Below, in pieces: positions 4,563-23,797 of a DNA stretch of 64,000 bases. Position numbers and translations under genes: made by a program. The stretch comes from Frondihabitans sucicola. Its GTDB lineage: Bacteria; Actinomycetota; Actinomycetes; Actinomycetales; Microbacteriaceae. The DNA lies in assembly GCF_030296615.1 (NCBI RefSeq), contig NZ_AP027732.1:2545042-2609041 (forward strand), in the 5' to 3' direction. Under the pieces are notes generated by a model, which saw nothing but the letters and a program-made list of their open reading frames with translations, was not told where the DNA came from and did not search any database. Positions within the stretch are counted from its first letter, which is position 1. Each line of letters starts with the position of its first letter.

Positions 4563-4634
4563 CTCGCGTCGCCTCCCCGACGATCCCAGAATTCGTCTTA
4601 CTTGACATAATGTGCATTATCAGCGCTCAAGTGT

Positions 4635-4693
4635 CGGGAATTGCATCTAATGCAGGAACTCCCGCTCAACGACCAGGACAACAAAAAGCCAGG
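4635..4693. repeat. left terminal inverted repeat of the element (contains palindrome TGCATctaATGCA)
   Basis: about 55/59 identity with the reverse complement of 23739-23797. Confidence 0.7.
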
Positions 4694-4768
4694 TCGGTGC
4701 CGTATTCGGCTCCCAGTGAATAACTATCAGGGACGCTTCTCTTGCCGTCAGATCCGCATAGGCGTAGG

Positions 4769-4791
4769 TTTCCTGCATTAGATGCAGGAAA
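4769..4791. promoter_or_regulatory. palindrome TTTCCTGCAT-TAG-ATGCAGGAAA just upstream of the integrase gene; shares the GCATCTAATGCAGGAA core with IR-L (likely recombinase binding site/operator)
   Basis: 10-bp perfect arms seen directly; 7 bp upstream of the int start. Confidence 0.45.
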
Positions 4792-4797
4792 CCACGA

Positions 4798-5937
4798 TTG
4801 GAGAACCGGATGGATGGCGAATTTCCGGGCTTTGTCCCGAAGGTCTTGCTTGATCCTTCTATCGCGTTGTTTCGCGCCGAAGACCGCGTATTCGAGGCGA
4901 TGGTTGATGGTTGGACGTCGGAGATGCTGGCTCGTGGCAATCAGGTGTCAACGATCAAGGATCGCGTGAGCTTGCTCAGGCGGTTCCAGTCGTTTACCAA
5001 TGATTACCCGTGGATGTGGGGTCCAGGCGATATCAACGAGTTCGCGGCCGAGCGACTGTCCGGTGAGCGGCCGATCAAGCCCACAACCCTCCGCACCGAC
5101 TCGAATACGATCGCGATGTTCTGCTCTTATGTGTCTAATCCGGCCTACGGCTGGGTGGCCTTTTGCGAACGGACATTCGACTCAATTCCTTCACAAATCG
5201 TGTTCGAGTGGAACAGCCCGCACCACTCGGCCGACGATGCTGTTCCGACAGGCAAACGAGCTTTTACTAAGCCGGAGCTTCAGCTCATCTTCGACTATGT
5301 TGACGACCTCGCAGACAGTGAATATGCCCGTGGGTCCAAGCGCTGGCCGAACTTGCTCCGTGACTCCAATGCATTCAAGATCTGCTATGCCTACGGCCTT
5401 AGACGTCGGGAACTCACCATGCTCGACACTGTCGATTTCGGACCCAATCCATACGTCCCCGATTACGGCATGTTCGGCGCCCTCACCGTGCGTTGGGCCA
5501 AAGGGGTCAAGGGATCGGGTCCACGACGCCGAACGGTACTGACTGTCCCCGAGTTCGACTGGGTGGTCGAGCTAGCCGACAAGTGGATCAGCTCAGAACG
5601 CCGCGGACGTTTCTCTCACGCCGACGGATCGCTCGCCCTTTGGCCGAGTGAGCGGGGTAACCGCATCTCCCTCGGCACATTAGGCGACGCGTTCACCGCA
5701 GCTCGACGCGCCGTCGGCCTACCCGAAGATCTCGGCCTTCATTGCCTCCGGCACTCCTACGTCACGCACCTGCTGGAGGCGAAATATGACCCGCTGTTCG
5801 TTCAGCAGCAGGTCGGGCACGCCTACGCCTCCACCACGAGTCTCTACACCTCGGTGTCCGACAACTTCAAACAGAGAGCGGTCCAGGAAATGATTGCTGC
5901 ACGCGTTCCAGCCAAGACGGAGACTGCCCATGCCTGA
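4798..5937 (+). CDS. tyrosine-type site-specific recombinase/integrase (catalytically intact)
   Basis: C-terminal box II HCLRHSYVTHLLEAKYDPLFVQQQVGHAYASTTSLYTSV (HxLRH...LGH...Y); TTG at 4798 or ATG at 4810; stop overlaps the next start. Confidence 0.85.
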   Translation: MENRMDGEFPGFVPKVLLDPSIALFRAEDRVFEAMVDGWTSEMLARGNQVSTIKDRVSLLRRFQSFTNDYPWMWGPGDINEFAAERLSGERPIKPTTLRTDSNTIAMFCSYVSNPAYGWVAFCERTFDSIPSQIVFEWNSPHHSADDAVPTGKRAFTKPELQLIFDYVDDLADSEYARGSKRWPNLLRDSNAFKICYAYGLRRRELTMLDTVDFGPNPYVPDYGMFGALTVRWAKGVKGSGPRRRTVLTVPEFDWVVELADKWISSERRGRFSHADGSLALWPSERGNRISLGTLGDAFTAARRAVGLPEDLGLHCLRHSYVTHLLEAKYDPLFVQQQVGHAYASTTSLYTSVSDNFKQRAVQEMIAARVPAKTETAHA

Positions 5938-6283
5938 AATCCGCCGAATCGGCTTCCATTGGAAACTCCGTGCCGTCATGGCCCAGCACAACCTCTGGAA
6001 GTCCACCGACCTCATGCCGCTGCTAAAATCGAGGGGCGTGAACCTCTCCGAAAGTCAGATTTATCGACTCGTCACCGGCTCCCCCGAGCGCATTCCCGCA
6101 CGCACTTTCGCGGTACTCTGCGACATCTTCGACTGCACGCCCAATGACCTCTTCGAACCATTTGTCGAGATGCGGGCCGCCGCGACCGCCAACGCGCCAA
6201 AGGACGTCGAGGATTTGACTTCCACGCCGGGACAGCCGCTAACGCACCGGGTGCGTCTGAGCCGCGTCGAAGACGATGAGTAG
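5930..6283 (+). CDS. XRE-family helix-turn-helix DNA-binding protein
   Basis: ATG overlaps the integrase stop (ATGcctGA); KSTDLMPLLKSRGVNLSESQIYRLVTGSPERIPARTFAVLCDIFDCTPNDLFE = HTH_XRE. Confidence 0.7.
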   Translation: MPEIRRIGFHWKLRAVMAQHNLWKSTDLMPLLKSRGVNLSESQIYRLVTGSPERIPARTFAVLCDIFDCTPNDLFEPFVEMRAAATANAPKDVEDLTSTPGQPLTHRVRLSRVEDDE

Positions 6284-6668
6284 GCCAAAGCAGCCCGAGG
6301 ACCCGGAGCGCTTTCCGCTTGCCTGCGCGCGCTGTCATGAGCATCGGGCCCTGGCAGCTTTTTTCGGGACTGAAGGGAGCGTCTGCGTCAACTGCTACAT
6401 GAAAGCCAAGCGCACCCGTGGGGTCTGCGCCTGTGGGCACGAGGGGGTCCTTCCTGGCATGGTTGGGGGGCAGCCGGCGTGCCGAGCATGCAGCGGTGTA
6501 AAGCTCAACATCGACTGCGTCTCATGCGGAACCGAGGACGAACTCTATTCAGGTGGACGGTGCTGGAACTGCACACTCCGTGAAGCCGTGGATTCCGCCC
6601 TGACGAACCCGTCGACCGGCACAATCTCCCCGCGCTTGTCCCCCTGGCGACGGCACTCAAAGGGATGA
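6276..6668 (+). CDS. cysteine-rich (multi-CxxC, zinc-ribbon-like) protein of unknown function
   Basis: 130 aa with CARCHEH, CVNC, CACGH, CRAC, CVSC, CWNC motifs; overlaps both neighbours by a few nt (operon). Confidence 0.45.
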   Translation: MSRPKQPEDPERFPLACARCHEHRALAAFFGTEGSVCVNCYMKAKRTRGVCACGHEGVLPGMVGGQPACRACSGVKLNIDCVSCGTEDELYSGGRCWNCTLREAVDSALTNPSTGTISPRLSPWRRHSKG

Positions 6669-7747
6669 AGAGGGCAAACAGCGGGCTCACCTGGATTAGA
6701 CAGGATCACGTTCAGGCATTCCTCCGCACCCTCGCCACCTCAGACACGATCACTCAGGAGAGCCTTGATGCCCTCCCAAAAACGAAGACGCGCGAATACG
6801 TCCGCGGCCTCCTTGTCGAGCACGGAATCATCGTCACCCGCGACGACTATCTCGTCCGCTACACCGCGTGGTCCAACGAAGCCGTCGAGCGACTCGTCCA
6901 CGCGCCGGATAAAGCTATCGTGGTCCGCTACGTCCGGTGGCAGCACCTACGGCGCATGCAGCAGATGGACGAGGTGACGATCGGCACATTCCTTCGCTCG
7001 AAGCAGACCGTCACGGTTGCCATCGACTTTCTTAACTGGCTACATCATGAGGGAGTGCTCTTCGCGGACGTCCGTCAAGCGCATCTCGACGAGTGGATTA
7101 ACACTGGACCTTCGACACGAAAGATCGCCAATCGATTCCTTCGTTGGGCTATCAAGACCCGTCTCGTAAAGCCCGACTTGACAATTGCACCGCACCGGCG
7201 TGGCACGGCCGAGCGACTGGATGCTTCGGCTCAAGGAGCCGCCCTTGAACGCGTCGTCCATACCGACGAGCTGGCGCCCCGTGAGCGAATAGCGGCGACG
7301 CTCGTCCTCGTCTTCGGCCAGCAGGTTCGAGACATCGTGACCCTTACCTGGGACCGGGTGCGCATCGAAGACGGTCTCGTCACAATTCGCATGGGCGGGT
7401 TCGACATCGACCTCCCGGCTCCCCTCGACGAGCCATGGCGGCAGCTTGCGGCCCACTCGCCGAACATGCAGACCGCGGCCCACCCGCATAGCTCTTGGGT
7501 CTTCCCCGGGACCAAGCCCGGCTATCACGTCAACCCGAGTCACATGCGGAACCGGCTAAAGCAATACTTCAGCGCACGCGCCGCGCGCCTTGGTACCCTC
7601 CACGAACTCTCCAAACTCGGCCCGATCCCTGTGATCGCCGACGCACTCGGCTATCGGCCGCAAACCATTGAGGCTCACGCAAAAGACTCCGCCTCCGCCT
7701 ACGCCCGCTATGTCGCGTCGATTCGCAGTGAAGACCAGCCAGATTGA
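6665..7747 (+). CDS. tyrosine recombinase-like protein, probably catalytically degenerate
   Basis: N-terminal SAM-like core-binding domain (QAHLDEWI...), catalytic-domain start ...GQQVRDIVTLTWDRVRIEDGLVTIR...DLPAPL, but box II reads HELSKLG...LGYRP...YARY (conserved Arg replaced by Ser, His by Tyr). Confidence 0.55.
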   Translation: MKRANSGLTWIRQDHVQAFLRTLATSDTITQESLDALPKTKTREYVRGLLVEHGIIVTRDDYLVRYTAWSNEAVERLVHAPDKAIVVRYVRWQHLRRMQQMDEVTIGTFLRSKQTVTVAIDFLNWLHHEGVLFADVRQAHLDEWINTGPSTRKIANRFLRWAIKTRLVKPDLTIAPHRRGTAERLDASAQGAALERVVHTDELAPRERIAATLVLVFGQQVRDIVTLTWDRVRIEDGLVTIRMGGFDIDLPAPLDEPWRQLAAHSPNMQTAAHPHSSWVFPGTKPGYHVNPSHMRNRLKQYFSARAARLGTLHELSKLGPIPVIADALGYRPQTIEAHAKDSASAYARYVASIRSEDQPD

Positions 7748-7833
7748 GGGCTTGATTCATGCAGGCTTGTGGATTTCCTCGCGCTGCCTATTTGAATCTC
7801 TCCCTCATCCCGACACCAAGGCTCGGTCGGCTC

Positions 7834-9649
7834 TCAGCTGAGTCCCGCTTCCAGCCGAATACGGGCAAGATCCCTATGCTCGGGTATCCCGGTGATTGAC
7901 CATGGCTCCGGAACGACAAGGTCATTTTTTAGAAGTTCAGAACTATAGATCCGGAACGGGGTTCCATCCATGGGCTCCAGTCTGATATTCATGCCCTTTG
8001 CCGTGCCGCCCAAGAGTCGCCTTCGCACCTCGTCGGCATCCGCGATTTTCATCCTTGGGTGAAAAATGTTTGGTTCGGGTATTAAGACTGGATTGTCCAG
8101 CACGTTGACGCCTGAACCTTCTCCCCGGAAACGCTCCGGTTTAAGATGGCACCTCCCGCGTCCAGCAAGACCATCAGGCCCTCGTCCATTGAGCCGCTGA
8201 GAGTGGCTTTCATCGAAGAATAGTTAGGGATGAGGGCGCATTTTCCTTCCAGCAGCATCCGTGCGATCCGCGTCCAAATACGCTCCGCAGCCTCAGGCAA
8301 CTCCTGCGGAAAAGCGAAGGTCACATCGCCCAACTTCTCGATCACAGACAAGTCCTCGGCATACTCGCTCAATTTTGGGTCAGCCGCTCTTAGGTCTGCC
8401 CCCTGTGGGAGCGCCGCGCTGACCGACTTTCCACTCAGGGTGAGCCGGAGTCGTTGAGCCCGAGGAAGGGTGTCCATAAAGCGAACTACCCGGTTGACGG
8501 CCACGCCGGACCGTCCCACAGCATCAAAGGTCATGTCTGTGGAACCAGAAAGGCTGTCTCGTGGGAAGCGCCAGAACATTGAAAGGACTTCTTCGAAGGA
8601 CACCTCGATAAAGCCGCCTTCCGTGCCGTTCCCCACATCGGTGCTCGTGCCAGTAAGCCCGCCAAGGTGCGTGCCGTCAGCGGCGTATGAGTCGATGCGG
8701 GCTGGTTCACCTTGGTGAGCGTCACGAACGGGGATTACCGAGACTGCATAGCCGCTCTCCGTCCCCGAAAACCAGTCGGCCGGCCCGTCATAGACCAGTG
8801 AATGGACGTTCTGCTCCGGCAAGTCGAGACGCGTGCCCCGTCCGTAGCCGAACACATCTTTCGTCAGTTTTGCCAGTTCCGCATCCTCACGGCCGAACAA
8901 CATGTTGACCGTGATCGACAGCGGTTCCATGTCCGCTGCGTCTTCCCTCTTCGCGTACAATTCCCACCCTGGCAATCCGTCGACGACAGCCAGTCGGCGA
9001 CCCCAGTACAGGCTGAAAGTGTTCTGGTCGGCAATGTACCGAGCTAGCCCGTCGTGGGCCTCTTGAAGAGTTCTAGGTGCTGCATCCTTATGGCCAATCC
9101 TTGAAAGGGCCAAGTCCACCGCGCTGCGCACGCTCCAGTCTTGGACGTCGGGATGTTTGGCGAGGAGTCTGTCCAGCTCAACGGAGCCAAGAATGTGAGT
9201 TCGAATCGAGGTGCCATCGCTCAGCTTCGAAACCCACTTTTGTTCGGCGTCCGTAAACTCTTCTGGCACCACCAAGGTCCAGTCCGGCATGCCCAGGGCT
9301 GTCGCTGTCGTGAACGACTTCTTGATTTGCTTGCGTCGACTGTCACGCCAGCCCCCGAAAAGCCTTCAGGGAAATGCTTCAGTTGAAACACATGGACGAC
9401 TGAACCAGATGTCTTGTCCCGAAAGACGATGTCGATGCCGCCGTCACCGCCGCGGCCGCTGGGTGCCGAAGCGGCGTATCCGAGGGCGTCACCGTCACGA
9501 GTGATAAGCACGTTCACGATTCGCTCGAAGTCCTCGCGGGAAATTGTCCGCCACTGAACTTTTTCGACCACGGACTCTCCCCCATTGCAGCACTGCGTCA
9601 ATCGTATCGGCGCCAACGCACTGACCAGGGACGAGACGAAATGCCTCAC
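7834..9649 (-). CDS. Mrr-like PD-(D/E)xK restriction-endonuclease N-terminal domain fused to a ~450-aa domain of unknown function; two apparent single-base frameshifts (~9354 in a G6/C6 run, ~8106)
   Basis: N-terminus ...SREDFERIVNVLITRDGDALGYAASAPSGRGGDGGIDIVFRDKTSGSVVHVFQLKHF (D-GGIDIV...QLK = Mrr catalytic motif); three successive frames join into one ~600-aa protein if one base is restored at each junction; lower GC than surroundings. Confidence 0.5.
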
Positions 9650-9832
9650 CCTGACGAGGAGGCAGACGCGTCTCCGCGAGATGGAGAACGCTGTTCCGTA
9701 CGTCGCACTGGCGCGATCGCAGCACGTCGCTCAGTTGTCGTTGGCATTTCGTCGCAGCCGGCGATTTGACTCCGCCGCTGTCACCCAAGCGGCGATCCTT
9801 CAAAGCGCATTCTTAGGCGAGGGGCGTCGTTC

Positions 9833-10351
9833 CTAGTTGGTTCCGGTGACGGTGCTGCGGCGTTCGAGGAAGACGTTGTCTCGCCACTGTCCTGCCCACG
9901 GGCCGAAGCTCATCCGCCCAATGCGTTCCCGGATGCCGACCTCTCGGAATCCGTGGGCGGCATGAAGGGCGAGGCTTCCGCGGTTCTCGGGGAAGACCGC
10001 GGATTGAATCATCCAGACTCCCGCTGCTTCGGATGTGGTGATGAATTCCGCCAGGAGCAGGTGGCCAACCCCGGCACCGCGGGCGTTCTTGGAGACATAG
10101 ATGGAGTGCTCGATGACCCCCTGATACACCGGCCGCGACGACACGCTCGACGCGGCCGCCCACCCGACGACGTTGTCCTGCGTGTCCACGGCGACGAGTC
10201 GGAGTCCTCGAATTTTTCCGCCATCGAACTCCTCCCAGGACGGAGGCTTGTCCTGGAAGGTCGCGTTACCCGACGCGATGCCCTCGGCGTAAATCCGTTC
10301 GACGGCAGGCCAGTCGCCCGCCTTCATCGCACGGATCGTCACCTCGGTCAT
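9833..10351 (-). CDS. GNAT family N-acetyltransferase (phosphinothricin acetyltransferase-like)
   Basis: MTEVTIRAMKAGDWPAVERIYAEGIASGNATFQ...RGAGVGHLLL; ATG 10349-10351. Confidence 0.8.
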   Translation of the reverse strand: MTEVTIRAMKAGDWPAVERIYAEGIASGNATFQDKPPSWEEFDGGKIRGLRLVAVDTQDNVVGWAAASSVSSRPVYQGVIEHSIYVSKNARGAGVGHLLLAEFITTSEAAGVWMIQSAVFPENRGSLALHAAHGFREVGIRERIGRMSFGPWAGQWRDNVFLERRSTVTGTN

Positions 10352-10697
10352 GCCGGGTTGAGGGTCCGACTGCTGGCGGTGAGGGCGGCGAAGTCGGCAC
10401 GGTAGTACGCCCATTTGCCGCGCTGTTCGCGGATGGCAAGGCCGGCGTCGACGAGCTGCTTCATGTGATGCGACACCGTGGGCTGCGACAGCCCGACCGG
10501 TGCCGTGAGGTCACAGATGCAGGCTTCCCCGTAGGGCTTGCCGCGATGAGTGACAGGAGCCGCACTCGGGTGGGATCGCCGAGCGCCTTGAACACCTTGG
10601 CGACGTCTTCCGCTGCGGACGCCGTGAGGGCGTCCTCACTGGTCGGGGCGCAGCACGCCGCGTCGGTGGGCGCGAGAAGCGAGGCACTGGTGGTCAT
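10348..10697 (-). CDS. arsR: ArsR/SmtB family metalloregulator (apparent single-base frameshift ~10543)
   Basis: MTTSASLLAPTDAACCAPTSEDALTASAAEDVAKVFKALGDPTRVRLLSLIAA then +1 frame GKPYGEACICDLTAPVGLSQPTVSHHMKQLVDAGLAIREQRGKWAYYRAD; stop overlaps the GNAT start (ATGA). Confidence 0.7.
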
Positions 10698-10721
10698 GGC
10701 CTCATTCTGCCAGTCGCATTG

Positions 10722-10760
10722 ACATCTGTCGATGTATCGAGCACAGTCGATGTATTGATT
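10722..10760. promoter_or_regulatory. repeated 12-13 bp near-palindromes (GTCGATGTATCGA / GTCGATGTATTGA) in the divergent arsR / arsO promoter region; candidate ArsR operator
   Basis: seen directly between starts at 10697 (-) and 10785 (+). Confidence 0.4.
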
Positions 10761-10784
10761 GTTGTCGATCCGAGGAGTTTTCCC

Positions 10785-12101
10785 GTGTCTGATCTTCCCG
10801 TTGTCGTCATCGGCGCCGGCCCGCAGGGCCTTGCCGCTGCCGCCCACCTTCTCGAACGTGGCCTTGACCCCCTGGTACTCGAAGCTGGCGACGGCCCGGC
10901 GGCCGCTGTGAATGAGTGGGGCCACGTCCGGCTGTTTTCGGACTGGTCAGAACTCGTCGACACCACGGCCGGCCGGCTGCTTGAAGGAACCGGATGGACG
11001 GCTCCGGCGAAGGGCTACCCGACCGGAGCGCAGTGGATCAGCCGCTACCTCTCGCCTCTCGCTGAGGCGTTGGGTGACCGGGTGCGGTACGGCACCACCG
11101 TGACTGGTATCGGTCGGCAGGGCCGTGACCGGCTGGTGGATGCGGGCCGAAGCGAGCAGCCCTTCACCGTTCACGTCAACGCCGGCGGGACCGAGGAACG
11201 CATCACCGCTCGTGCTGTCATCGACGCGTCGGGAACCTGGTCGACCCCGAACCCGCTGGGCGCCGACGGTCTCCCCGCCCTCGGCGAGAAGGCAGCGGCC
11301 GCGTTCATCTCCGATCGCATCCCTGACTTCCACGACCATGACCGGTTCGCCGGCAAACACACGGTCGTCGTGGGCAGTGGGCACTCCGCGGCGACCGCGA
11401 TCAACGAACTCACCCGCGTCGCCAAACAGCACCCCGATACCCGCATCACATGGGTCCTTCGTCGAGGTGGCGTTGGGAACACATTCGGTGGCGGCACGGC
11501 CGACGAGCTGCCCGAGCGCGGAGCCCTCGGCGCTCGTGCGCAGAAGTCCGTCGAGGCGGGGATCGTGGATCTCGTCACCGGGTTCCGCGTCGAACGAATC
11601 AACACCACCGACACCGGCGCCGTCCTCATCTCCGAAGACGGACGCGCCCTGCCCGAGGCAGACCTCGTCGTCGCCCTGACCGGGTTCCGACCCGACCTGT
11701 CGTTCCTGTCGGAGGTGCGCCTCGAGCTGGATGCCACGTTGCAGGCACCCATCCGAATCGCGGCGGAGGTCGACCCCAACGTACATAGCTGCGGGTCCGT
11801 CCGAGCCACCGGAGCTGCGGACCTGGCACAACCGGAACAGGATTTCTACCTCGTCGGCGCGAAGTCCTACGGCCGCGCGCCCACGTTCCTGGCGATGACC
11901 GGATACGAGCAGATCCGCAGCGTCGTCGCGGAACTGGCCGGCGACCACGAGGCCGCCGCCCGCATCGACCTCATCCTCCCTGACACCGGCGTGTGTGGCG
12001 GGGCAGGGTTGTTCGACGACCCCACCGGCGCCAGAGGCGGCGCCTGCTGCGCCCCTGCATCGACACTTCTGCAGATCGGCCGTGCCCCCGTCACCGCTTG
12101 A
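10785..12101 (+). CDS. FAD/NAD(P)-binding oxidoreductase (ArsO-like flavin monooxygenase family found in actinobacterial ars clusters)
   Basis: GTG start 8 nt after a GAGGAG RBS; VVVIGAGPQGLAAAAHLLERG dinucleotide-binding motif, second GxGxxA (VVVGSGHSAATAI). Confidence 0.65.
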   Translation: MSDLPVVVIGAGPQGLAAAAHLLERGLDPLVLEAGDGPAAAVNEWGHVRLFSDWSELVDTTAGRLLEGTGWTAPAKGYPTGAQWISRYLSPLAEALGDRVRYGTTVTGIGRQGRDRLVDAGRSEQPFTVHVNAGGTEERITARAVIDASGTWSTPNPLGADGLPALGEKAAAAFISDRIPDFHDHDRFAGKHTVVVGSGHSAATAINELTRVAKQHPDTRITWVLRRGGVGNTFGGGTADELPERGALGARAQKSVEAGIVDLVTGFRVERINTTDTGAVLISEDGRALPEADLVVALTGFRPDLSFLSEVRLELDATLQAPIRIAAEVDPNVHSCGSVRATGAADLAQPEQDFYLVGAKSYGRAPTFLAMTGYEQIRSVVAELAGDHEAAARIDLILPDTGVCGGAGLFDDPTGARGGACCAPASTLLQIGRAPVTA

Positions 12102-12116
12102 GCGAACCAGTCGCCG

Positions 12117-12791: not shown

Positions 12792-12831
12792 TACCTCAAT
12801 CTTGACTGAGGTACCGTCTTGGCGTCAAGAT

Positions 12832-13587: not shown

Positions 13588-13608
13588 CCCGCCCCGAAAG
13601 GCCCTCTC

Positions 13609-14991: not shown

Positions 14992-15380
14992 CCGACAAGC
15001 CCACCGTCTTGTTCATCTGCCAGCACAACGCCGGCCGCTCCCAACTCGGCGCAGCCCTCCTCGAACACCTCGCCGGAAACGACTACACGGTCACCTCAGC
15101 GGGGATCGCGCCCGACAAGACAGTGAACCCGGCCGTCGCGGCGAGTATCGCGGAGCTGGGGATGGACATCAGCCAGCGGGAACCGCGGGCCGTCACCGTC
15201 ACCGACCTCCAAGAGGCCGACGTCGTCGTCCTCATGAAGCCTGGCCTAGTCTTGCCGAGCACGCCCGCGGGACGGGTGTTGGAGTGGTCCTTCCCGAATC
15301 CGGAGAACTGGGACGTGGACTCCGTCCGGCCCTTGAGGGAAGCGGTCGCGGCGCGCATCACCTCCGACCTGTTCGCCTGA
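14988..15380 (+). CDS. arsC: arsenate reductase, LMW protein-tyrosine-phosphatase family
   Basis: MTDKPTVLFICQHNAGRSQLGAALLE (CX5R); ATGA overlap with the upstream gene. Confidence 0.8.
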   Translation: MTDKPTVLFICQHNAGRSQLGAALLEHLAGNDYTVTSAGIAPDKTVNPAVAASIAELGMDISQREPRAVTVTDLQEADVVVLMKPGLVLPSTPAGRVLEWSFPNPENWDVDSVRPLREAVAARITSDLFA

Positions 15381-15400
15381 CGCTATGACCTGGAGGGGAG

Positions 15401-16998: not shown

Positions 16999-17400
16999 TG
17001 GTCGGTTCCGGTGGTCTCGGGGTGGATCGCGACCGTGTGACCGGTGTGGGTGAGCCCGAGGTCGAGGAGCATCCGGACGTGGCCGTCGTCGAGGCGGTAG
17101 TACGCCATCCGCCCACGACGTGCGACCGACACCACCCGGTGCGCCCGAAGGAGCCGGAGTGCGTGACTGACAGAGCTTTCGCTCATCGCCGTTGTCGCCG
17201 CGAGATCGCACACACATCTCACCGCCTTCGAGAAGAGACATCAGAAGGCGAAGCCGGCCTGGGTCGCCGAGAAGAGAGAACACGTCCGCCAGCTCGACGA
17301 CGTCTTCCGCGTCGGGCAGGCTGCGTCGAACCAGGTCGACCTTGTCCGGGTCGACCATCTTCAGCTCGCAACTATCGATGCTCGCCAGATCGCTCGCCAT
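16995..17400 (-). CDS. ArsR/SmtB family metalloregulator (NmtR/KmtR/CzrA-like) with a 2-bp frameshift inside a (TG)n run at ~17213
   Basis: DVFSLLGDPGRLRLLMSLLEGGEMCV then CDLAATTAMSESSVSHALRLLRAHRVVSVARRGRMAYYRLDDGHVRMLLDLGLTHTGHTVAIHPETTG; restoring TG in ATGTGTGTG(TG)CGAT joins the frames. Confidence 0.7.
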
Positions 17401-17533
17401 GCCGACTCCTCATCTGATCACTTGTTCAGATGACCGTAACAGGCCGACGAGCCCTAGTCACGCAGCCGCCCCTTGCAGGTCAGTCTGAATTCATGTCACA
17501 ATGGTCCTGCGCTTTTAGCGCGTGAAAAACAGC

Positions 17534-17560
17534 CGGCCCTTGGGTCGGTTTTTTTGTGCC
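17534..17560 (+). terminator. intrinsic-terminator-like hairpin plus U7 (CCGGCCC-UUG-GGUCGG-UUUUUUU) with no protein gene upstream on this strand
   Basis: seen directly; 7-bp stem with one G.U pair then T7. Confidence 0.4.
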
Positions 17561-17726
17561 CGAAAACGGTCGCCTCTTTGCGCCATCGGTCAGCACACCC
17601 ACCGCGAGGCCACCGCACCGGCGGCACCTCGCTGTTCTCGCCCGCGAGAAACATCAGCCTCGGACCCGCACGCCGCGAGGTTCGTGAGCCGACCCCTGGG
17701 TCGGCAGCATCAACGGTGGAGGTTCC

Positions 17727-17900
17727 ATGCTCCAGCTGTCGATTGAGATCCCTGCTGCCGCGGGCTACGCAATCGGATTCGCCGTCGCAACAGGCATCAT
17801 CGCGACCGCCATCCGTACCGCGTGGCCCGTGCTGAACGACAAGGCTGCACGCCGCGTCGCTCGCATGCACCGGGCGAAAGCCGCTCGCAAGAGCGACTAG
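17727..17900 (+). CDS. small hydrophobic protein (57 aa), hypothetical
   Basis: GGAGG 6 nt upstream of ATG; MLQLSIEIPAAAGYAIGFAVATGIIATAIRTAWPVLNDKAARRVARMHRAKAARKSD (one TM helix + basic tail); below the ORF-track size cutoff. Confidence 0.35.
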   Translation: MLQLSIEIPAAAGYAIGFAVATGIIATAIRTAWPVLNDKAARRVARMHRAKAARKSD

Positions 17901-18070
17901 CTCAAAAAACGCACCCCTCCATCGTTAAGGAGAGCTCTGTCTTCAGGTGTGCAACAAACGACCGTCCACGAGACAGTCACGCAGAGCTGCTCAAGAGTCG
18001 GCGCGTCATGTCCCATGGCCCGTGTCCGCGACCTATGTTCCGTAAGACACGTTCGAGGTACAGTTCTGCC

Positions 18071-18637
18071 ATGGCATCCGTCGGCTACGCCCGCGTCTCC
18101 ACCCAAGAGCAGAACCTCGACGCACAAACGGACGCCCTCGAGGCGGCCGCCTGCGACAAGGTGTTCGTCGAGCATGCCTCCGGGGTTCTCGCGAAACGGC
18201 CCGCCCTGGATGATGCCCTCGACTACCTCCGCGAAGGCGACACTCTAGTCGTCACGAAACTCGACCGACTCGGCCGCTCCGTCCGGAACCTGAAAGAGAT
18301 CGCTAACGGACTCGAGCGCCGCGGCGTTGGCCTCAGAGCCCTGTCGCAGGGCATCGACACGACCACCCCCGGCGGCCGGCTGTTCTTCCACATGCTCGCG
18401 GCCATTGCGGAGTTCGAGCACGACCTCATCGTCGAACGCACGAAGGACGGTTTAGCTGCCGCCCGAGCCCGCGGCCGAAAAGGCGGCGGGCGTTCAAAGA
18501 TGACCGCCACGAAAGCCAAGCAGGCCCGAGCGATGTACGACGAGAAGACCTATACCGTCCAGCAGATTGCTGACACCTTCGGCGTCTCACGCGGCACCAT
18601 CTACCGGCACCTCGAAGAAGACATCAGCTCCATTTAG
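18071..18637 (+). CDS. serine recombinase (resolvase/invertase, Hin/Gin/Pin family)
   Basis: MASVGYARVSTQEQNLDAQTDALE... catalytic Ser in YARVST; C-terminal HTH YTVQQIADTFGVSRGTIYRHL. Confidence 0.85.
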   Translation: MASVGYARVSTQEQNLDAQTDALEAAACDKVFVEHASGVLAKRPALDDALDYLREGDTLVVTKLDRLGRSVRNLKEIANGLERRGVGLRALSQGIDTTTPGGRLFFHMLAAIAEFEHDLIVERTKDGLAAARARGRKGGGRSKMTATKAKQARAMYDEKTYTVQQIADTFGVSRGTIYRHLEEDISSI

Positions 18638-18715
18638 CCCGAGGACCGCTCCACATCACGAGCGTCCGCGAAGGCCTTAAGTGGGTTCCGCTTGAGTGCC
18701 CTAGTGGGTCCGAGA

Positions 18716-18772
18716 CACTTTGACATAGTCGTCTTTCGCTTCACGTTCACCCGTCAGCACGGACACAGGTCC
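18716..18772 (-). pseudogene. 3'-terminal remnant (~17 codons) of a paralogue of the short CDF gene 15401-16069
   Basis: translates MPLGPVSVLTGEREAKDDY..., matching the ...CTVPVSVLTGEREAEEDD end of 15401-16069; nucleotide similarity to 15404-15460; upstream part replaced by lower-GC DNA. Confidence 0.5.
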
Positions 18773-18864
18773 AAGCGGCATGAAAAACACACATCGAGAG
18801 ACAAGCGGGAACCGGCCAATCGACGTGGCAATCCTGCGGGCTATCCATATCTGGACTTACGACA

Positions 18865-19974
18865 TCAAAACGACCAAGGATCCAGGCGCGTGATGGCGAG
18901 TACGGCGGAGTCATCCGCATTGCCCACGAAGCCTCCACCCACCGATATTTCCCCTTGCCATGCAATTGTCGCGCCGACGCGGCACTTTTCAATTTCCGGA
19001 AGGCGGAGGCGAGTTCTGTCGAAAAGAAGTTCGCCGTCATCGTCGGTCGCCGCTTCGCGGATAGTTCGGTCACCCATGTCGAAGATGAAATTGTGATTCT
19101 CAGTTTGCACGTGCCAGAGACCTTGGTCGTTGTCGCGCAACTCAACGATCTGCTGCCCGATGTGGACGACGTCAGTGATTTCCGAAGGACTTTGACTCAA
19201 GGGAAATAGCTCTCCGACGCCCTGGGCCAAGAATGCAAGGCTGTCAAAGATATCGACCGCAATCATCAACGCGCTGCCGGAGTGAGTCTCGATGCTGATT
19301 TGATCTCCTCGACTGGCAACGTCGGCGACCAGGTCGGTGAATTGGCCAGAAGCGTCGTGGACGGAAATCGATCGTCGCGCAGGGAACTGTCCCGATGGCG
19401 TCACGTCGGCCTCACTCTCCGATGTGAGGGAGCTTCTCTCGTCGAGACGGTAGATCCCCGTGACGGCTGATCTAGAGGATCTCTGCGTCACTTCCCCTAT
19501 CCGGGCAGTAGACCAGGTCGCCACGGCTCCGACGCTGACCTCGACAATGGCGCCGAAGCCTTCACGTCCCATTGGGGTTCCACCACTTCCCGTCCGCTGG
19601 CCATAGAGCTGCCGGGCATCCATGTCGAAGATGAACAACTCGTCAGAGGTTCCGACCTTCCACGTGCCGGAGTCGGAATCGTAGAGATCTGTGATGGAGT
19701 CCCAGCGCGAGGTGTGCATGCCCGCATCGACGCGCTGGATATCGGGCTGGTTGAGAGCGACCAGCTCGGTGACGAGCGGGATCCAGGGTGCGAGATAGCT
19801 GGACGGGAGGAGAACGGCTCCGCCCCATCGTGACGTCGCCAAGATGGGTTCGCATCGGGAGATCACCGACGCGAGCACGCGCTCCAGGCCCTGCTGTATG
19901 TCGACTGCGGGTCTCGTCAGCACAATCGCCTCCCTGTGAGTCGGGAGATGGTCGTCCGCGAACCTCGTTGCCAC
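18865..19974 (-). CDS. hypothetical protein with two internal repeats (hFIFDMxxR motifs)
   Basis: 369 aa; LYDSDSGTWKVGTSDELFIFDMDARQLYG and NDQGLWHVQTENHNFIFDMGDRTIREA; last gene of a translationally coupled operon; low GC. Confidence 0.45.
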   Translation of the reverse strand: MATRFADDHLPTHREAIVLTRPAVDIQQGLERVLASVISRCEPILATSRWGGAVLLPSSYLAPWIPLVTELVALNQPDIQRVDAGMHTSRWDSITDLYDSDSGTWKVGTSDELFIFDMDARQLYGQRTGSGGTPMGREGFGAIVEVSVGAVATWSTARIGEVTQRSSRSAVTGIYRLDERSSLTSESEADVTPSGQFPARRSISVHDASGQFTDLVADVASRGDQISIETHSGSALMIAVDIFDSLAFLAQGVGELFPLSQSPSEITDVVHIGQQIVELRDNDQGLWHVQTENHNFIFDMGDRTIREAATDDDGELLFDRTRLRLPEIEKCRVGATIAWQGEISVGGGFVGNADDSAVLAITRLDPWSF

Positions 19975-19975
19975 C

Positions 19976-20773
19976 TCATCCCCACCTCCAGTGGAGCGTT
20001 TCTAGTTCAAGAACGCCGATATTTCCCGGTCGTTCATCGGGCGCCATGGAATAGACGCGACGGCCGTCTTCGAGGGTTGCTTCGGCTCGGCTGTGGATGT
20101 GGCCGTGGAACAGGATGCCAGGGTGGATGGCATTCCACAGGTCTGTTGTTCGGGAGCGCGAGATGGCGGACGCCCAGAGTCGGTCCGCTGGCCATCTGCC
20201 GGGGTTCCGTCCTTCCTCGATGCCTGCCGTCGCTTCGGTGGCGCCGTTGACGGCCTCGTGAGTGAGCATGATGTCTGCCGGGCCCGATAGAGCGGCCTCC
20301 GCGTACGCTTCTTTGCGGGCGACCTCGTCTGGCCACCAATCGCGGTTTTTTCCGTGAGCATTTCGCCGGTGCCGATCTACCGACGCCGCTCCCCCGAACG
20401 ACATGAACGTGCGCCCTCCGATCACGAAACGGTATCCGTGTGGCAGGACCCAGATGTGCTGACCGATCCGAACGGGCTCTCGTCGCACCCATGCAGGTGT
20501 GCTTCTAAGGCGGCCATAGTCTTCATGGTTTCCGGGGGTAATGAGAACTTGCTCGATCCCATTGCCGCGGCACCGGGCGTCGACCATGTTCACGAAAGCC
20601 TTGGCGACGCGACCTCGCCCGATGTTGAAATCGCCCAATTGCAAGATCGTCTTCGCCCCTGGCGCCATCTGTGCGGCGCGAGGGATGACCTTCATGGCCC
20701 AGATGATGTTGCTGTGCCAATCTCCCGCCACGACCACGCGCGGATCCGCCGCGTCGGGAACCCACGCGGTCAT
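19976..20773 (-). CDS. calcineurin-like metallophosphoesterase
   Basis: VVVAGDWHSN, GDFN, ITPGNHE, FHGHIH motifs; stop overlaps the upstream gene. Confidence 0.75.
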   Translation of the reverse strand: MTAWVPDAADPRVVVAGDWHSNIIWAMKVIPRAAQMAPGAKTILQLGDFNIGRGRVAKAFVNMVDARCRGNGIEQVLITPGNHEDYGRLRSTPAWVRREPVRIGQHIWVLPHGYRFVIGGRTFMSFGGAASVDRHRRNAHGKNRDWWPDEVARKEAYAEAALSGPADIMLTHEAVNGATEATAGIEEGRNPGRWPADRLWASAISRSRTTDLWNAIHPGILFHGHIHSRAEATLEDGRRVYSMAPDERPGNIGVLELETLHWRWG

Positions 20774-21432
20774 ACCCCGGATCGATCGGCAATAGTGCGT
20801 TGAAGATCGTTCAATGCATTTAGAACGGGTTGCATGTCGCCTCCACTGCTGAGCCAACCGACGGGAGTGGCCGCCGCATGTCGGCGCAGCGTGGGTTGAG
20901 CGTCGTACATGAAGTCGCCGAGGTCATGGATTCGTTTGGCGTCTTCAAGATCGTGCAGGCCCTGGAGGCTGTTGAGCAGGCCGGTATGGGTCGAAGAGTC
21001 GATTTGCCAGGCGGGAATGAGCACGAGGTTTCCCACAAAGAATGCTGACAAAAGGCCACTGGCCAGCCACGCATCGACCTGTTGAAGAGGGATGTTTAGG
21101 TATGAGGCGAGGCTTTGCGGGACGAACGCGGACGCGATGTTGAGAATGAGGCTTCCCGCCAGCTCTACATGAAGTTGCCCACTCCGGGCGGCTTCCTCAG
21201 CGTCCGAGAGTTGCGTGCTCGTGACAATCCCGGAGTCCACGAGGAAAGAACGAACGTCCTCGGTGAGCATCGACGCGCCCGGACCAGGCGCGCTCCTAAG
21301 GGCACTATTGACCGCCGCCCATCCCGTTTCGGAGTCGACGTCCCCCGAGTGCAGGAGGGCGTGCAGCCCCTGAGAGTCTCGTCGGAGGGACGCGTCCGCT
21401 TCCAGGCGAGCCTCAGTAGGTCGGTCAGTCAC
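20770..21432 (-). CDS. hypothetical protein with two predicted TM helices
   Basis: 221 aa; GTG start overlapping the stop of 21425-21976; hydrophobic stretch LAGSLILNIASAFVPQSLASYLNIPLQQVDAWLASGLLSAFFVGNLVLIPAW. Confidence 0.4.
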   Translation of the reverse strand: MTDRPTEARLEADASLRRDSQGLHALLHSGDVDSETGWAAVNSALRSAPGPGASMLTEDVRSFLVDSGIVTSTQLSDAEEAARSGQLHVELAGSLILNIASAFVPQSLASYLNIPLQQVDAWLASGLLSAFFVGNLVLIPAWQIDSSTHTGLLNSLQGLHDLEDAKRIHDLGDFMYDAQPTLRRHAAATPVGWLSSGGDMQPVLNALNDLQRTIADRSGV

Positions 21433-21976
21433 GAGCGGCCTCAAGGGCGGAGAACAGACTGTCCTCCGCTCCTCCGACGTGGGCCCACTCGATGGCATTT
21501 AGAGCGAGATTCATCTTCAGAGCGCGTTGAGGGGTCGTCATGAATGCGCTCAGGAGTCGCCAGTCCATTCCGTCGGCACTTGAAAGGATTTGTTCCAGGC
21601 CCGGCAGGAGGTCGCGGGGACTCTCCTCTGTGAATTGCCAAAGCGGAACCCGCTGCTCCCCGTCCACGAGGACCGCCAGAAGACGGCCGGCAGCGATCAG
21701 CCCTCTGACCTCGCCTTGGGGAATCGTCAGGAGCGTGGCTGCTCGCGAAACACTGGTCGTCAAGATCGGCTCCCGCGCGTAGCTCGTCGCACAGAAGCTC
21801 TCGGCAGCTTCGGGCAACGGCCAGTCGCCAGACCGTTGCGGCGTCCTCGATGCACGAATAGACCCGCGCACTCCATCGGCGAGTCCCCTGAGAAATCCGG
21901 CCCGCCCGATTGAAAGCGTGTCAGCGAAGGCGAGGACTTGCTGGAAAGAGGCAGATACGAAGACGGCGGAATCCAT
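21425..21976 (-). CDS. excisionase-type (HTH_17/MerR-like) DNA-binding protein with C-terminal domain (possibly Xre/MbcA/ParS antitoxin-like)
   Basis: ATLLTIPQGEVRGLIAAGRLLAVLVDGEQRVPLWQF helix-turn-helix; C-terminal ~80 aa PQRALKMNLALNAIEWAHVGGAEDSLF. Confidence 0.45.
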   Translation of the reverse strand: MDSAVFVSASFQQVLAFADTLSIGRAGFLRGLADGVRGSIRASRTPQRSGDWPLPEAAESFCATSYAREPILTTSVSRAATLLTIPQGEVRGLIAAGRLLAVLVDGEQRVPLWQFTEESPRDLLPGLEQILSSADGMDWRLLSAFMTTPQRALKMNLALNAIEWAHVGGAEDSLFSALEAARD

Positions 21977-22148
21977 GGGACAGCTTTCGAGTGAGGCGAC
22001 CCCAAGCCGGGTCGTCGCGTGGAGCGAGCTGGCCGGTTGACCTGCTCACTTTCCTCTCGTGCTGCGTCCCTCACAGCGGTGTTGCGTCCGAACCTGACGG
22101 AGTGCGCTCCGCCCGGAAAGGATTGAATGTGGCCGGCGCTGACGTCGG

Positions 22149-22847
22149 TCATGCCATGTTCCAAATTTCGAAGAGGCGCTCCGATGAACCCTCCAGGTAG
22201 CGGAGCAGCGTTGCGGCGACCGGTCGAGCGGAACCTCCGCTGAGCAGAAAATCCCGAGGCGACAAGTGATCTTTGCCACGCCGCGGAAGAGTCGGATCAT
22301 CGAGCGTCATGATGGCTCTCGTGAATGCAGCGGGAATTTCCGGAGGTATCGCCGCGACGATCATCTCCATCTGCTGGGTTATGACCTTCGCGCTGCGGCC
22401 ATCGCTTGTAAATTCGAACTGCCACGACGGCAACAGGTACCGATCTGCGGCCCTGATCGCATGGAGCCTGCCCCACTCAATGTCGTCGAGTACGACACGC
22501 GTCGAACACCCCAGCAAGGACGCCACCTCGTTGGGAGTGAGTGACATGCCGACGTCGAGAAACGACATCCTCGCCAAGATCTCTCGGATGTCGTCGGCTT
22601 CTAGGTGACCATTGAGTCGAGATGGCCGCTCTTCCATGGTCAGCCGCTCCAGTAGCAGCAGGTGGTGCGCTTTTTTCAGCCCAAGCGAGTTGACACTGAG
22701 CGCCTCGAGGATCGAGCTGAGGTCGTTGACGGTGTCCACGGGATCGATGCCGAAGGCCTTGAGTGACATTTCTAGACGGCCGGCCGCGCTGGACCACGTA
22801 CGGAGGTCAGATCCCTGAGCCGACTGCGAGCCCGCTGACGATGCCAT
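22149..22847 (-). CDS. excisionase-type HTH protein, paralogous architecture to 21425-21976 (N-terminal extension + HTH + DUF2384-like C-terminus)
   Basis: SLTPNEVASLLGCSTRVVLDDIEWGRLHAIRAADRYLLPSWQF; C-terminal TLDDPTLPRRGKDHLSPRDFLLSGGSARPVAATLLRYLEG. Confidence 0.45.
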   Translation of the reverse strand: MASSAGSQSAQGSDLRTWSSAAGRLEMSLKAFGIDPVDTVNDLSSILEALSVNSLGLKKAHHLLLLERLTMEERPSRLNGHLEADDIREILARMSFLDVGMSLTPNEVASLLGCSTRVVLDDIEWGRLHAIRAADRYLLPSWQFEFTSDGRSAKVITQQMEMIVAAIPPEIPAAFTRAIMTLDDPTLPRRGKDHLSPRDFLLSGGSARPVAATLLRYLEGSSERLFEIWNMA

Positions 22848-22861
22848 GCCATCAAATTAGT

Positions 22862-22877
22862 ACACTTTTGTGTACTG
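22862..22877. promoter_or_regulatory. perfect 16-bp palindrome GTACACTTTTGTGTAC in the divergent promoter region (candidate XRE operator)
   Basis: seen directly, 14 bp downstream of the start of the (-) gene at 22847 and 66 bp upstream of the xre ATG. Confidence 0.5.
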
Positions 22878-22942
22878 TGCCATGGCTAGAGTTGCGGAAG
22901 TCTTGGACGGTGCCAAATTCTGGATCTGAGAACTTCGAGGCC

Positions 22943-23149
22943 ATGCGTTCTGCCCTGGAAAGGCTTCGGCACGAGCGGGGATTTAGCTTCGAGCGTTTGC
23001 GCGACGAATCGGGTGTCTCTCGGACAGCCATTATCAAGTTGGAACAGGGGCGATCCACGGGCAGCCTGAGGACATGGTGCAAAATTTCGAATGCCTTGGG
23101 AGTTCCCTTCTGGCAACTAGCTAAGTACCTGGACGAGCCAATCGGGTGA
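22943..23149 (+). CDS. XRE-family HTH transcriptional regulator (68 aa)
   Basis: MRSALERLRHERGFSFERLRDESGVSRTAIIKLEQGRSTGSLRTWCKISNALGVPFWQLAKYL. Confidence 0.6.
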   Translation: MRSALERLRHERGFSFERLRDESGVSRTAIIKLEQGRSTGSLRTWCKISNALGVPFWQLAKYLDEPIG

Positions 23150-23738
23150 ATGTGAGAAGGCCGTTGCACTTTTGTCAGAAGACGCGCCACCTACCGGATT
23201 GCTTCTTCGAGCGAACCGCGGCATGGGTCACGTGCCGCCTCGATACTGAGCGGGTGACGACTCGTGAAGACCTGCGGCCGCCGTGAGTTCGAATTCCACA
23301 ACTAAGCGCCCGCACCCGTAGTTCGGTCAACATACCTACATCCCTGAGTTCAGCCCTCGGAGTCACCGGGCGCTCGGCCTGAGCATCCCACCTCGGCACG
23401 ATTCTCATGGCTTGGGCGTCGTCATCGGACCCCGGCTGTCGTTGCTCGGACGACGGGAACAAAACTAGGAGCGGCGACCGCCGTTGTCGTTCTAAGTAGT
23501 CGCTGACCTGCGCCTATCTGTCGACAGCGGACCTACTCCGCCTGCTACTCAAAGTCCTCTTCGAATGGTGGTTCATCAATCCCATTGCGGCCCTCGTCCT
23601 CGTCTTCTTCGGCGTCCGCGAAAAAGTCGATGCCCGAAGGACGATGCCTGCGCCACGTTCGTAGGCATGCTCCTACGAAAAGTAAACGTTGACTTCATTC
23701 CTGCCCAAGGTTCTGCTTCCTTAGTCCAAGACTTCCCG

Positions 23739-23797
23739 GCCTGGCTTTTTGTTGTCCTGGTCGTTGAGCGCGACTCCCTGAATTAGATGCAACTCCC
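23739..23797. repeat. right terminal inverted repeat of the element
   Basis: reverse complement matches 4635-4693. Confidence 0.7.

Follow-up and report, generated by a model that had tools for sequence, protein, structure and literature searches.

An arsenic- and metal-resistance block in Frondihabitans sucicola as a probable copy of a widespread actinobacterial element docked beside dif

Frondihabitans sucicola, a member of the Microbacteriaceae, carries in the chromosomal stretch analysed here (64,000 nt of NZ_AP027732.1, positions 2,545,042 to 2,609,041; hereafter the window) a block at ~4629-23824 in which genes for arsenic and metal resistance follow a tyrosine-recombinase module. In our judgment this block is probably one copy of a widespread group of actinobacterial integrative elements that are specific in site and orientation, reside on chromosomes and plasmids alike, and dock by the XerC arm of the dif site. 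An initial annotation of the same DNA had read the block as a mobile element bounded by inverted repeats and lying off the conserved actinobacterial backbone. Much of that description is borne out: the block is discrete and horizontally acquired, a tyrosine-recombinase module stands at its left end with resistance cargo in its company, and Pfam agrees with the gene content then given (a tyrosine recombinase by the left repeat, arsenic and metal resistance, and a serine recombinase). What has to be redrawn is where the element ends and what it targets.

At its left junction the element abuts a candidate chromosomal dif site (Table 1). This 28-bp sequence lies 37 nt past the stop codon of tetR, a conserved backbone gene to the left of the element. 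It is identical at 25 of 28 positions to the computationally predicted dif of Frankia alni, CACGCCGATAATGCACATTATGTCAAGT (PMC3025954), and its arms and architecture are like those of Escherichia coli dif, GGTGCGCATAATGTATATTATGTTAAAT (PMC3025954); no experimentally validated mycobacterial dif sequence turned up in open papers. A dif profile built from 120 metagenome sites returned a single match in the 64-kb window, at 4598-4630 (E=3e-8). Because dif lies at 4600-4627, the window probably spans the F. sucicola replication terminus. For relatives of the element, the locus falls at 0.40-0.59 of the record length in six records, mostly complete chromosomes, a position that would denote the terminus provided that their numbering begins close to the origin.

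The association with dif is a property of the family and not of this copy alone. We assembled 80 related loci (these and further loci bear L numbers below) from a scan of one genome per species, and in nearly every one a motif of about 30 nt, TT(G/T)ACATAATGTnnnTTATC(G/A)GCG, lies immediately to the left of the left terminal palindrome of the element; its position in the window is 4600-4627. Among the 68 loci with at least 330 nt upstream of the integrase gene int1, 54 have a dif-like 28-mer (up to 5 substitutions, both strands searched), on the same strand and mostly ~209-213 nt upstream of int1, the distance rising to 371-418 nt in nine loci, mostly mycobacterial; matches to the 28-mer total only 58 in 2.6 Mb. 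Ten of the 14 loci missed by this count have degenerate dif-like sites at the same place. Throughout, int1 points away from dif and the 28-bp site is left intact. Two pairs of near-identical elements locate the junction. L052 and L054 are 99.8% identical over 8.2 kb, and L057 and L058 are 99.9% identical over 11.5 kb, while the members of each pair have different left flanks and different dif sequences: the 28-mers differ at 6-7 positions, and identity resumes 0-1 nt past the 28-mer. Since the pairs differ inside the 30-nt motif and have unrelated DNA to its left, the motif belongs to the target side. Readings of the motif as a sigma-70 promoter or operator, or as part of the element, gave way in the light of these pairs, of unselected metagenome sites in their convergent-gene context and of the match to predicted dif; its reading as the start of a structured RNA was dropped as well, an Rfam search of the motif region having returned no RNA in 17 metagenome loci. 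These alignments place the left end of the family 0-1 nt from the outer edge of the XerC arm, at a dif or dif-like site.

Integrative mobile elements exploiting Xer (IMEX), among them CTX-phi, TLC-phi, VGJ-phi, the gonococcal island and Legionella LME-1, sit at chromosomal dif. Lacking a recombinase of their own, they bring a dif-like attP and undergo recombination within the central region of dif. Were the block a classical IMEX, host XerC/XerD would have exchanged it into that central region through such an attP, its own recombinases being uninvolved, and we see only a small chance that this is so. The block does abut dif, although its junction lies 0-1 nt outside the 28-mer and not within it. 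A functional-looking dif is retained on one side, and arrays form in which the most recent arrival adjoins dif, as the IMEX literature describes for TLC/CTX (PMC6744903). Unlike IMEX, however, the family brings its own recombinase module, its junction lies outside the XerC arm, and its ends lack a dif-like site. The catalytic set of the integrase Int1 is complete in the window, and Int1 is intact with a complete active site in every member. The dif profile matched neither the right end of any relative examined nor any other place in the window (nhmmer, E ≤ 10); the block is accompanied by one profile site rather than flanked by two; a weak resemblance to dif at the right end, noticed by eye, was unsupported by the profile search. 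Moreover, the 28-mer, XerC arm included, is host-specific in both near-identical pairs, and since pair identity begins outside it, the crossover does not lie in the dif central region.

Both ends of the window element were placed by analogy with relatives, among them many stand-alone isolate contigs of 3.0-4.1 kb that carry just the recombination module, some with high coverage in the contig name. These begin (at AA..CGGGAGT) a few nucleotides before a palindrome, (A/G)CGGGAGT-N15-ACTCCCGT or a GACGAGT variant, and finish with ...ACTCCCG-N22-GCCAGT(T). The ends of the family are thus asymmetric: on the left a palindrome, CGGGAGT-N15-ACTCCCG, of which the architecture across the family is (C/G)GGGAGT or GACGAGT, ~15 nt, then ACTC(C/G)(C/T)G; on the right ACTCCCG-N22-GCCAGT, the more general pattern ACTC[CG][CT][GC]-N(18-30)-GCCAGT marking the end of many loci, with L005, L008, L010 and L072 as examples among the stand-alone contigs. 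After its palindrome the left end also holds ACTCCCG-N26-GCAGGT, and an imperfect direct repeat of ~35 nt, ACTCCCG...GC(C)AG(G)T, is therefore common to both ends, which makes apt the comment in the initial annotation that direct att repeats are the norm with such recombinases. The same paired direct motifs were found by pattern scan in L001, L004, L011 and L015. As single-stranded DNA the terminal palindrome folds modestly (z = -2.3 in the window, -4.9 in L005). The window element carries both canonical ends, and GC content falls from ~0.69 to 0.56-0.65 between ~4400 and ~24400, with the lowest values at ~4.4-9.8 kb and 17.2-24.2 kb; the drop coincides with the limits of the element and includes the two lower-GC segments previously pointed out. 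Neither at the window ends nor in the paired near-identical comparisons was a target-site duplication seen, again as first reported, and the nucleotides at the left junction derive from the element in each of the four insertions that the two pairs represent.

These ends do not coincide with the inverted repeats by which the element had first been defined. The repeats themselves are real, and slightly longer than the ~59 bp originally described: a repeat finder returned a pair of 63 nt, 90% complementary (4635-4697 and 23736-23798), which is the longest inverted repeat in 3500-25500 (the runner-up being 38 nt at 79%), and alignment of the arms as originally drawn gave 53 identities in 58 aligned columns. 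A palindromic core common to both arms and to a palindrome before int1 was also located in all three places, as TGCATCTAATGCA at 4642-4654, TGCATTAGATGCA at 4774-4786 and TGAATTAGATGCA at 23779-23791. The second copy lies within a perfect palindrome with 12-bp arms, which as a hairpin scores z = -9.1, is kept at the same position in front of int1 in relatives, and is presumed to be an operator or protein-binding site. Among the 21 related loci that could be parsed, the half-site before int1 and the terminal palindrome's loop vary together (mean best 7-mer match 6.10 against 5.51 +/- 0.19 for shuffled pairings, exceeded by none of 500 shuffles), a pattern that is suggestive, at the level of sequence, of one helix-turn-helix (HTH) protein binding both palindromes. 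When 350 nt upstream of int1 were compared with everything downstream by blastn-short in the 80 loci, no long inverted repeat emerged, only three chance-sized matches of 15-22 nt, and long inverted repeats were therefore dropped as a family feature. In the 63-nt repeat the left end recurs as an inverted duplicate, which joins the right terminus at their common ACTCCCG motif; the repeat is confined to this copy and incidental to the definition of the element.

That the block is instead a transposon with inverted-repeat termini of ~60 bp, inserted into the 3' end of a membrane-protein open reading frame (ORF), has a slim chance of being correct. The repeat exists and is the longest in the region, and the ORF at 23783-24205 does overlap its right arm. 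The 80 related loci, however, have no repeat beyond ~15-22 nt, and the conserved ends lie outside the arms. The left boundary is 6 nt outside the left arm; on the right, the canonical end at 23792-23824 puts the true boundary 26 nt beyond the right arm. No DDE-type or other non-recombinase transposase domain was detected among the ORFs scanned. The supposed membrane ORF is without a convincing family match (DUF4131, E=0.0087, under the cut-off); rather than having been entered at its 3' end, as first proposed, it runs 42 nt into the right end of the element, and the target is the outer edge of the dif XerC arm.

The comparison with sister genomes of Frondihabitans supports an insertion. In Frondihabitans sp. 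PAMC 28766 (L081), window 4599-4629 has a counterpart identical at 31 of 31 positions. It is found 3.2 kb downstream of the tetR orthologue, in a neighbourhood where no integrase gene was called. In the metagenome-assembled genome L083, also Frondihabitans, the order is tetR, a reversed element of a second lineage (the B type, set out below, the window element being of the A type), dif, 145 nt, and a histidine-kinase gene; in the window, the same kinase gene (25173) is separated from dif by 20.5 kb, made up of the 19,196-bp element and 1.35 kb. By gene order and sequence, the block is an insertion in this lineage. The initial annotation had expected an empty site in relatives where tetR abuts the membrane-protein gene; the insertion stands (145 nt in L083 against 20.5 kb here), whereas the expected junction does not, the fixed landmark being dif.

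These genomes bear also on the notion that the dif-like site belongs to the element, as a multimer-resolution site or as its left terminus, and travels along with it, to which we give very little credence. In its favour, a dif-like site lies by almost every copy, including those on plasmids and multiple copies in one genome, and blocks consisting of a B-type element, dif and an A-type element are co-linear between genera. Yet elements at least 99.8% identical have dif sites differing at 6-7 positions and unrelated left flanks, tandem copies occur without dif between them, and the dif variant follows host taxon and not element type: Arthrobacter loci share ACTTTACATAATGTAGATTATCGGCGTT whichever element subtype they hold, and Microbacteriaceae, the window included, share ...TGTGCATTATCAGCG, the Frondihabitans variant being present in full in L081, where no integrase gene was called nearby. 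Unselected dif sites, moreover, are almost never accompanied by the element. In a set of at least 120 such sites from metagenomes, many of them between convergent genes, there was no A-type int1 to the right of 98 of the 99, and no B-type element to the left of 82 of the 85, that had enough flanking sequence on that side, among the matches listed.

The recombination module consists of int1, an XRE/Cro-type HTH gene, a Cys-rich zinc-ribbon-like ORF and int2. The active-site residues of Int1 (R198/R199, K231, H311, R314, H337, Y346) are invariant in 22 homologues; its matches to XerC and XerD models are weak, far under the curated cut-offs. The 117-aa HTH product is an exact match to BDZ50500. 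Most homologues of the zinc-ribbon and int2 products form one fused protein of 485-500 aa (~490 aa), in which C17, C20, C36, C50, C52, C68, C71, C80, C83, C95 and C98 are invariant and form CxxC-type pairs, and the core therefore normally comprises three genes. The module proposed in the initial annotation (int-xre-Cys-int') is accordingly right in its gene order, whereas as a four-gene unit it does not extend to most relatives. In the window the linker between the two parts is 20 nt, against 21 nt in L005, and stop and start overlap in ATGA at 6665-6668. Int2 matches PF00589 only at 4.7e-5, under the cut-off; an invariant Q219 aligns with R212 of lambda Int, LHELxKL replaces HxxR, and R308, Y330, H338 and Y349 are conserved. 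A profile-profile comparison of Int2 with Int1 gave no significant similarity, and a PDB sequence search with Int2 gave only marginal lambda Int matches. An AlphaFold2 model of a fused homologue (mean pLDDT 73.7, the N-terminal domain well predicted and the last 50 residues poorly) was compared with the PDB by Foldseek: 41 of the top 45 hits were tyrosine recombinases, led by XerA, Cre, Brujita Int, lambda Int, XerH and IntI; the best reached a probability of 1.0, though TM-scores were low at 0.2-0.4. Int2 is thus predicted to adopt the fold of a tyrosine recombinase, which makes its NCBI name, "Fis family transcriptional regulator", misleading.

Among the candidates scored, 2,662 Int1 homologues were found at E ≤ 1e-10, and all of the named ones are from Actinobacteria. 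Int1 of the window is 100% identical to a F. sucicola protein. The genes int1, HTH, Cys-rich and int2 are syntenic in more than 70 of the 80 loci. The hosts include soil, plant and clinical Actinobacteria (Mycobacterium, Rhodococcus, Gordonia, Arthrobacter). Family members occur in 84 plasmid records; a copy on the conjugative plasmid pLDW-10 adjoins aromatic-catabolism genes and also lies beside a dif-like site. F. sucicola itself has a second core copy, known at the level of protein accessions (BDZ52594-BDZ52596), on a 449,692-bp plasmid, its Int1 and HTH protein being 100% identical to the chromosomal ones; exact-protein look-ups for a second copy of Int1, Int2 and the HTH protein gave no match. 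In L032 (3,175 bp) int2 is followed almost at once by the right end, whereas other copies have 0.3-0.9 kb in between; the cargo slot therefore sits after int2. It is barely credible that the block is an old immobile genomic island, a decayed plasmid or integrative and conjugative element whose recombinase module is a relic, as its mosaic cargo, resolvase, remnant of a cation diffusion facilitator (CDF) 3' end, excisionase-like ORFs and split zinc-ribbon/int2 might suggest, given that both canonical ends and Int1 are intact, the strain has that second copy with identical Int1 and HTH, and the block is missing from L083.

The B type is a divergent version of this module, again of three or four genes, with 30-42% protein identity to the A type. 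In at least 14 loci it stands head-to-head with an A-type element, dif lying between the two left ends; B-type loci include L083 (6700-10360), L001, L004, L015, L039, L041, L050, L054, L055, L058, L061 and L073. The two types occur independently as well: L083 has B without A, the window has A without B, and L052 and L054 hold the same A element with and without B. Since the B boundary adjoins the XerD arm, ~2 nt from its outer edge, the two lineages occupy opposite flanks of dif. On the A side, right ends often run through ~7 nt into another left palindrome with no dif between (L004, L014, L022, L031, L034, L079). In L004, downstream of a full element beside dif, 13965-14270 holds two tandem miniatures of 139 bp, each with a left palindrome and a right end and no genes, followed by a solo palindrome; the miniatures look like non-autonomous derivatives akin to miniature inverted-repeat transposable elements. 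About 10% of the unselected dif sites, among the matches listed, carry solo palindromes or internally deleted copies. Relics of this kind occur in the metagenome loci L105, L117, L136, L162, L199 and L200, the last with a left end fused to the 3' part of int2, and their presence at dif indicates frequent decay or excision scars. Arrays and relics together are what one would expect of newcomers that insert between dif and an earlier occupant. A more speculative extension, which we put forward tentatively and hold to be rather less than an even bet, is that dif serves in Actinobacteria as a two-sided docking platform, with A-type elements at the XerC edge and B-type elements at the XerD edge, dimer resolution undisturbed, integron-like arrays (the 139-bp miniatures among them) building up, and XerC/D acting as a possible landmark or synapse partner. 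If this is true, it would be a choice of target that is undescribed for tyrosine-recombinase elements, with a logic like that of Tn7 beside glmS.

For the dif-docked integrative element that we favour, the following course may be proposed. The element would excise as a circle joining its right and left ends, with a predicted circle junction of ...CTGCCAGT-N-CGGGAATTGC and a predicted excised site consisting of dif followed by ATTTCGGGCG. Int1 would be the catalytic recombinase and, with Int2 and the HTH protein, would recombine the circle junction with DNA beside dif; Int2 would be a non-catalytic or partly catalytic partner, as proposed for Tfp and GinC. Because nothing past the 28-mer is conserved in unoccupied sites (position counts), specificity is assigned to dif or its bound proteins, and would come from the dif DNA or from dif-bound XerC/D. 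New copies would enter between dif and the prior occupant and so give rise to arrays. The HTH protein would probably bind the TGCAT-N3-ATGCA palindromes, as an autoregulator at the one before int1 and as an accessory factor at the one in the terminal palindrome.

Several observations weigh against the dif-docked reading or leave it incomplete. No circular junction, empty-site product or transposition event was observed, and mobility is inferred from comparison. Right junctions diverge straight after the terminus, with no recognisable target-derived motif. The actinobacterial dif that served as reference is a computational prediction, and GC skew, uninformative across the 64-kb window, showed no clear switch at 4600. 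Int2 is without key catalytic residues, which leaves the two-recombinase mechanism unproven. The zinc-ribbon and Int2 proteins are separate ORFs in the window, so that this copy could be impaired, a worry countered by Kribbella relatives, whose products of 356-382 aa suggest the same split. Finally, the B-dif-A block is co-linear between Janibacter and Nocardioides (L041 and L055, 6571-12365; 86.6% over 5.8 kb), so that part of the spread may involve larger units which take a dif-like site along, for example on plasmids.

Among described systems, the family resembles both IMEX and the group of Tn554, SE (strand-biased circularizing integrative elements) and GInt, and belongs to none of them. 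Tn554 encodes the tyrosine recombinases TnpA and TnpB together with TnpC, transposition requiring all three, and SE carry IntA-Tfp-IntB-Srap (PMC10214605); GInt carry GinABCD, in which GinC lacks catalytic residues, as does Tfp in SE (PMC10214605, PMC5385486). Like these, the family has a left-end operon of recombinase-fold proteins with a small accessory protein and cargo to its right, is specific in site and orientation (position and orientation are fixed in at least 54 of 68 loci), generates no target duplication, and has unlike ends and one degenerate recombinase. Its composition, two recombinase-fold proteins and one small protein, is analogous to that of Tn554, from which gene order and sizes differ, the comparison being one of descriptions (PMC10214605). 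The core here is int1, HTH, (Zn)int2 rather than intA-tfp-intB-srap, and the two recombinase-fold ORFs contrast with the three, plus ginD, of GInt. Tn554, SE and GInt differ further in their hosts, which are Firmicutes or Proteobacteria (SE being reported only from Gammaproteobacteria; PMC10214605), and in their targets, none of which is reported to lie by dif. The zinc-ribbon N-terminal domain is a feature of the family that is undescribed for these elements; here too they are set apart by their descriptions, not by sequence. RIT (recombinase in trio) elements, with adjacent tyrosine recombinases and 34-bp inverted repeats (PMC10214605), come nearest to the initial picture of inverted repeats combined with a tyrosine recombinase. 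RIT have three recombinases, all with the catalytic Tyr, and terminal inverted repeats throughout; here there are two, the second without Arg-I and HxxR, and a long repeat is confined to the window copy. Modules of the pdif type lie between two XerC/D sites and code for no recombinase, whereas members of the present family have one Xer site, on one side, and recombinases of their own. In Acinetobacter, cargo modules of this type are tied to XerC/D sites on plasmids (PMC5790767, PMC7399989).

Closer at hand are the "XER modules" of the Antarctic Arthrobacter plasmids pA2H2, pA40H2 and pA8H1, which Romaniuk et al. (2018, PMC6305408) proposed to be novel integrative elements. They consist of a "XerD" recombinase, an XRE regulator and a "XerC" recombinase followed by 4 or 14 cargo genes, measure 7.5 and 16.6 kb, carry metal-resistance cargo and are reported to be inserted between umuC and umuD (PMC6305408). 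This account, a single paragraph, was the only one of such elements that we came across. Core gene order, Micrococcales hosts and metal-resistance cargo are shared with the window element. Gene order and matches on Arthrobacter plasmids, rather than a sequence comparison, suggest that they belong to the same family; ends, target, mechanism and distribution are absent from the paper, as is any mention of dif. Full-text searches, with most subscription journals outside their reach, returned nothing relevant on dif-associated elements in Actinobacteria. We therefore regard the family as large and essentially uncharacterised, with docking at the outer edge of an intact dif as its notable trait, and any claim to novelty as provisional.

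The features of the element are collected in Table 1. A megablast search against plasmids returned matches to the arsenic and CDF cargo alone and none to the core, identity of the arsenic segment with Rathayibacter plasmids being 76-80%. The cargo ORFs tested, a set without the arsenic and CDF genes, have no counterparts in other members save for resolvase and HTH matches of a generic kind. Little was gained on the cargo from PADLOC and PHROGs. Directly after the core, the 402-aa ORF overlaps the 142-aa LmuA-like ORF (8082-9649, minus strand); the two may represent a frameshifted defence gene. Farther on, a 42-nt direct repeat of 86% identity (15407-15448 and 18728-18769) represents the 3' end of a CDF gene; its copies lie on either side of the CDF and resolvase segment, which suggests a duplication or insertion inside the cargo. 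Outside the element on the left, a palindrome at 3801-3853 (24-nt arms, 88%, 5-nt gap) lies between tetR (start 3882) and a minus-strand gene ending at 3780, and is probably the TetR operator. On the right, the 1.35 kb at 23825-25172 are without a counterpart in L083, are of intermediate GC content and hold two weakly supported ORFs, one DUF4131-like and one GATase_4-like; this segment may be a leftover of an earlier occupant of the dif flank.

Table 1. Coordinates of the element, its dif site and its genes in the window (LMWP, low-molecular-weight phosphatase; IR, inverted repeat)
Feature	Position	Strand	Description
Chromosomal dif	4600..4627	-	AGCGCTGATAA-TGCACA-TTATGTCAAGT: XerC arm, 6-bp centre, XerD arm; outside the element
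Whole element	4629..23824	+	19,196 bp; each end uncertain by ~1-2 nt
Left terminus	4629..4664	+	6-nt junction AAGTGT, then palindrome CGGGAAT-TGCATCTAATGCAGGA-ACTCCCG (4635-4664)
IR-L	4635..4697	+	Left arm of 63-nt repeat, specific to this copy
Inner left-end segment	4658..4694	+	ACTCCCG-N-GCCAGGT; direct imperfect repeat of right end
Perfect 27-nt palindrome	4767..4793	+	GGTTTCCTGCATTAGATGCAGGAAACC; ends 16 nt before int1 ATG (4810)
int1	4810..5937	+	375-aa tyrosine recombinase; PF00589 3.7e-17
XRE/Cro-type HTH protein	5930..6283	+	117 aa as annotated; ORF open from 5894; PF13443 HTH_26 4.3e-14
Cys-rich zinc-ribbon-like ORF	6276..6668	+	N-terminal domain of int2-type protein in most relatives, split off here
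int2	6665..7747	+	360 aa, tyrosine-recombinase fold (predicted); without first catalytic Arg and HxxR; C-terminal Tyr kept
Cargo region	7748..23735	.	Other 16 kb: arsenic and metal resistance, resolvase, unknowns
Unknown 402-aa ORF	8082-9290	-	
Mrr_cat/LmuA-like fragment	9221-9649	-	142 aa; weak Mrr_cat and Lamassu LmuA N-terminal matches
GNAT	9833-10414	-	
Flavin oxidoreductases (two)	10719-12101, 13609-14991		
ArsR-LMWP fusion	12117-12791	-	
LMWP	14925-15380		
CDF transporter genes (two)	15401-16264, 16066-17400	-	Overlap 200 nt
Resolvase	17822-18637		
Metallophosphoesterase	19976-20857	-	
Excisionase-like/HTH ORFs	20770-23149		
IR-R	23736..23798	-	Inverted copy of the left end's first 63 nt, just inside canonical right end
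Canonical right terminus	23792..23824	+	ACTCCCGGCTCCCGAACAGCGGCTCCTGCCAGT; fits family right-end pattern

In genome annotation the family shows only as "integrase", "HTH regulator" and "Fis family regulator". With ends and target known, such islands can be delimited automatically, and the flanks of dif become a place to look for acquired genes. Insertion that relies on self-encoded recombinases and takes place at the outer edge of dif, with the site left intact, departs from the behaviour of IMEX, and raises the question of whether dif-bound XerC/D guides a foreign recombinase. Furthermore, insertion in one orientation at a conserved site that occurs once per chromosome could help in the engineering of Actinobacteria. 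The family carries metal-resistance genes both here, in F. sucicola, and in the plasmids of Antarctic Arthrobacter.

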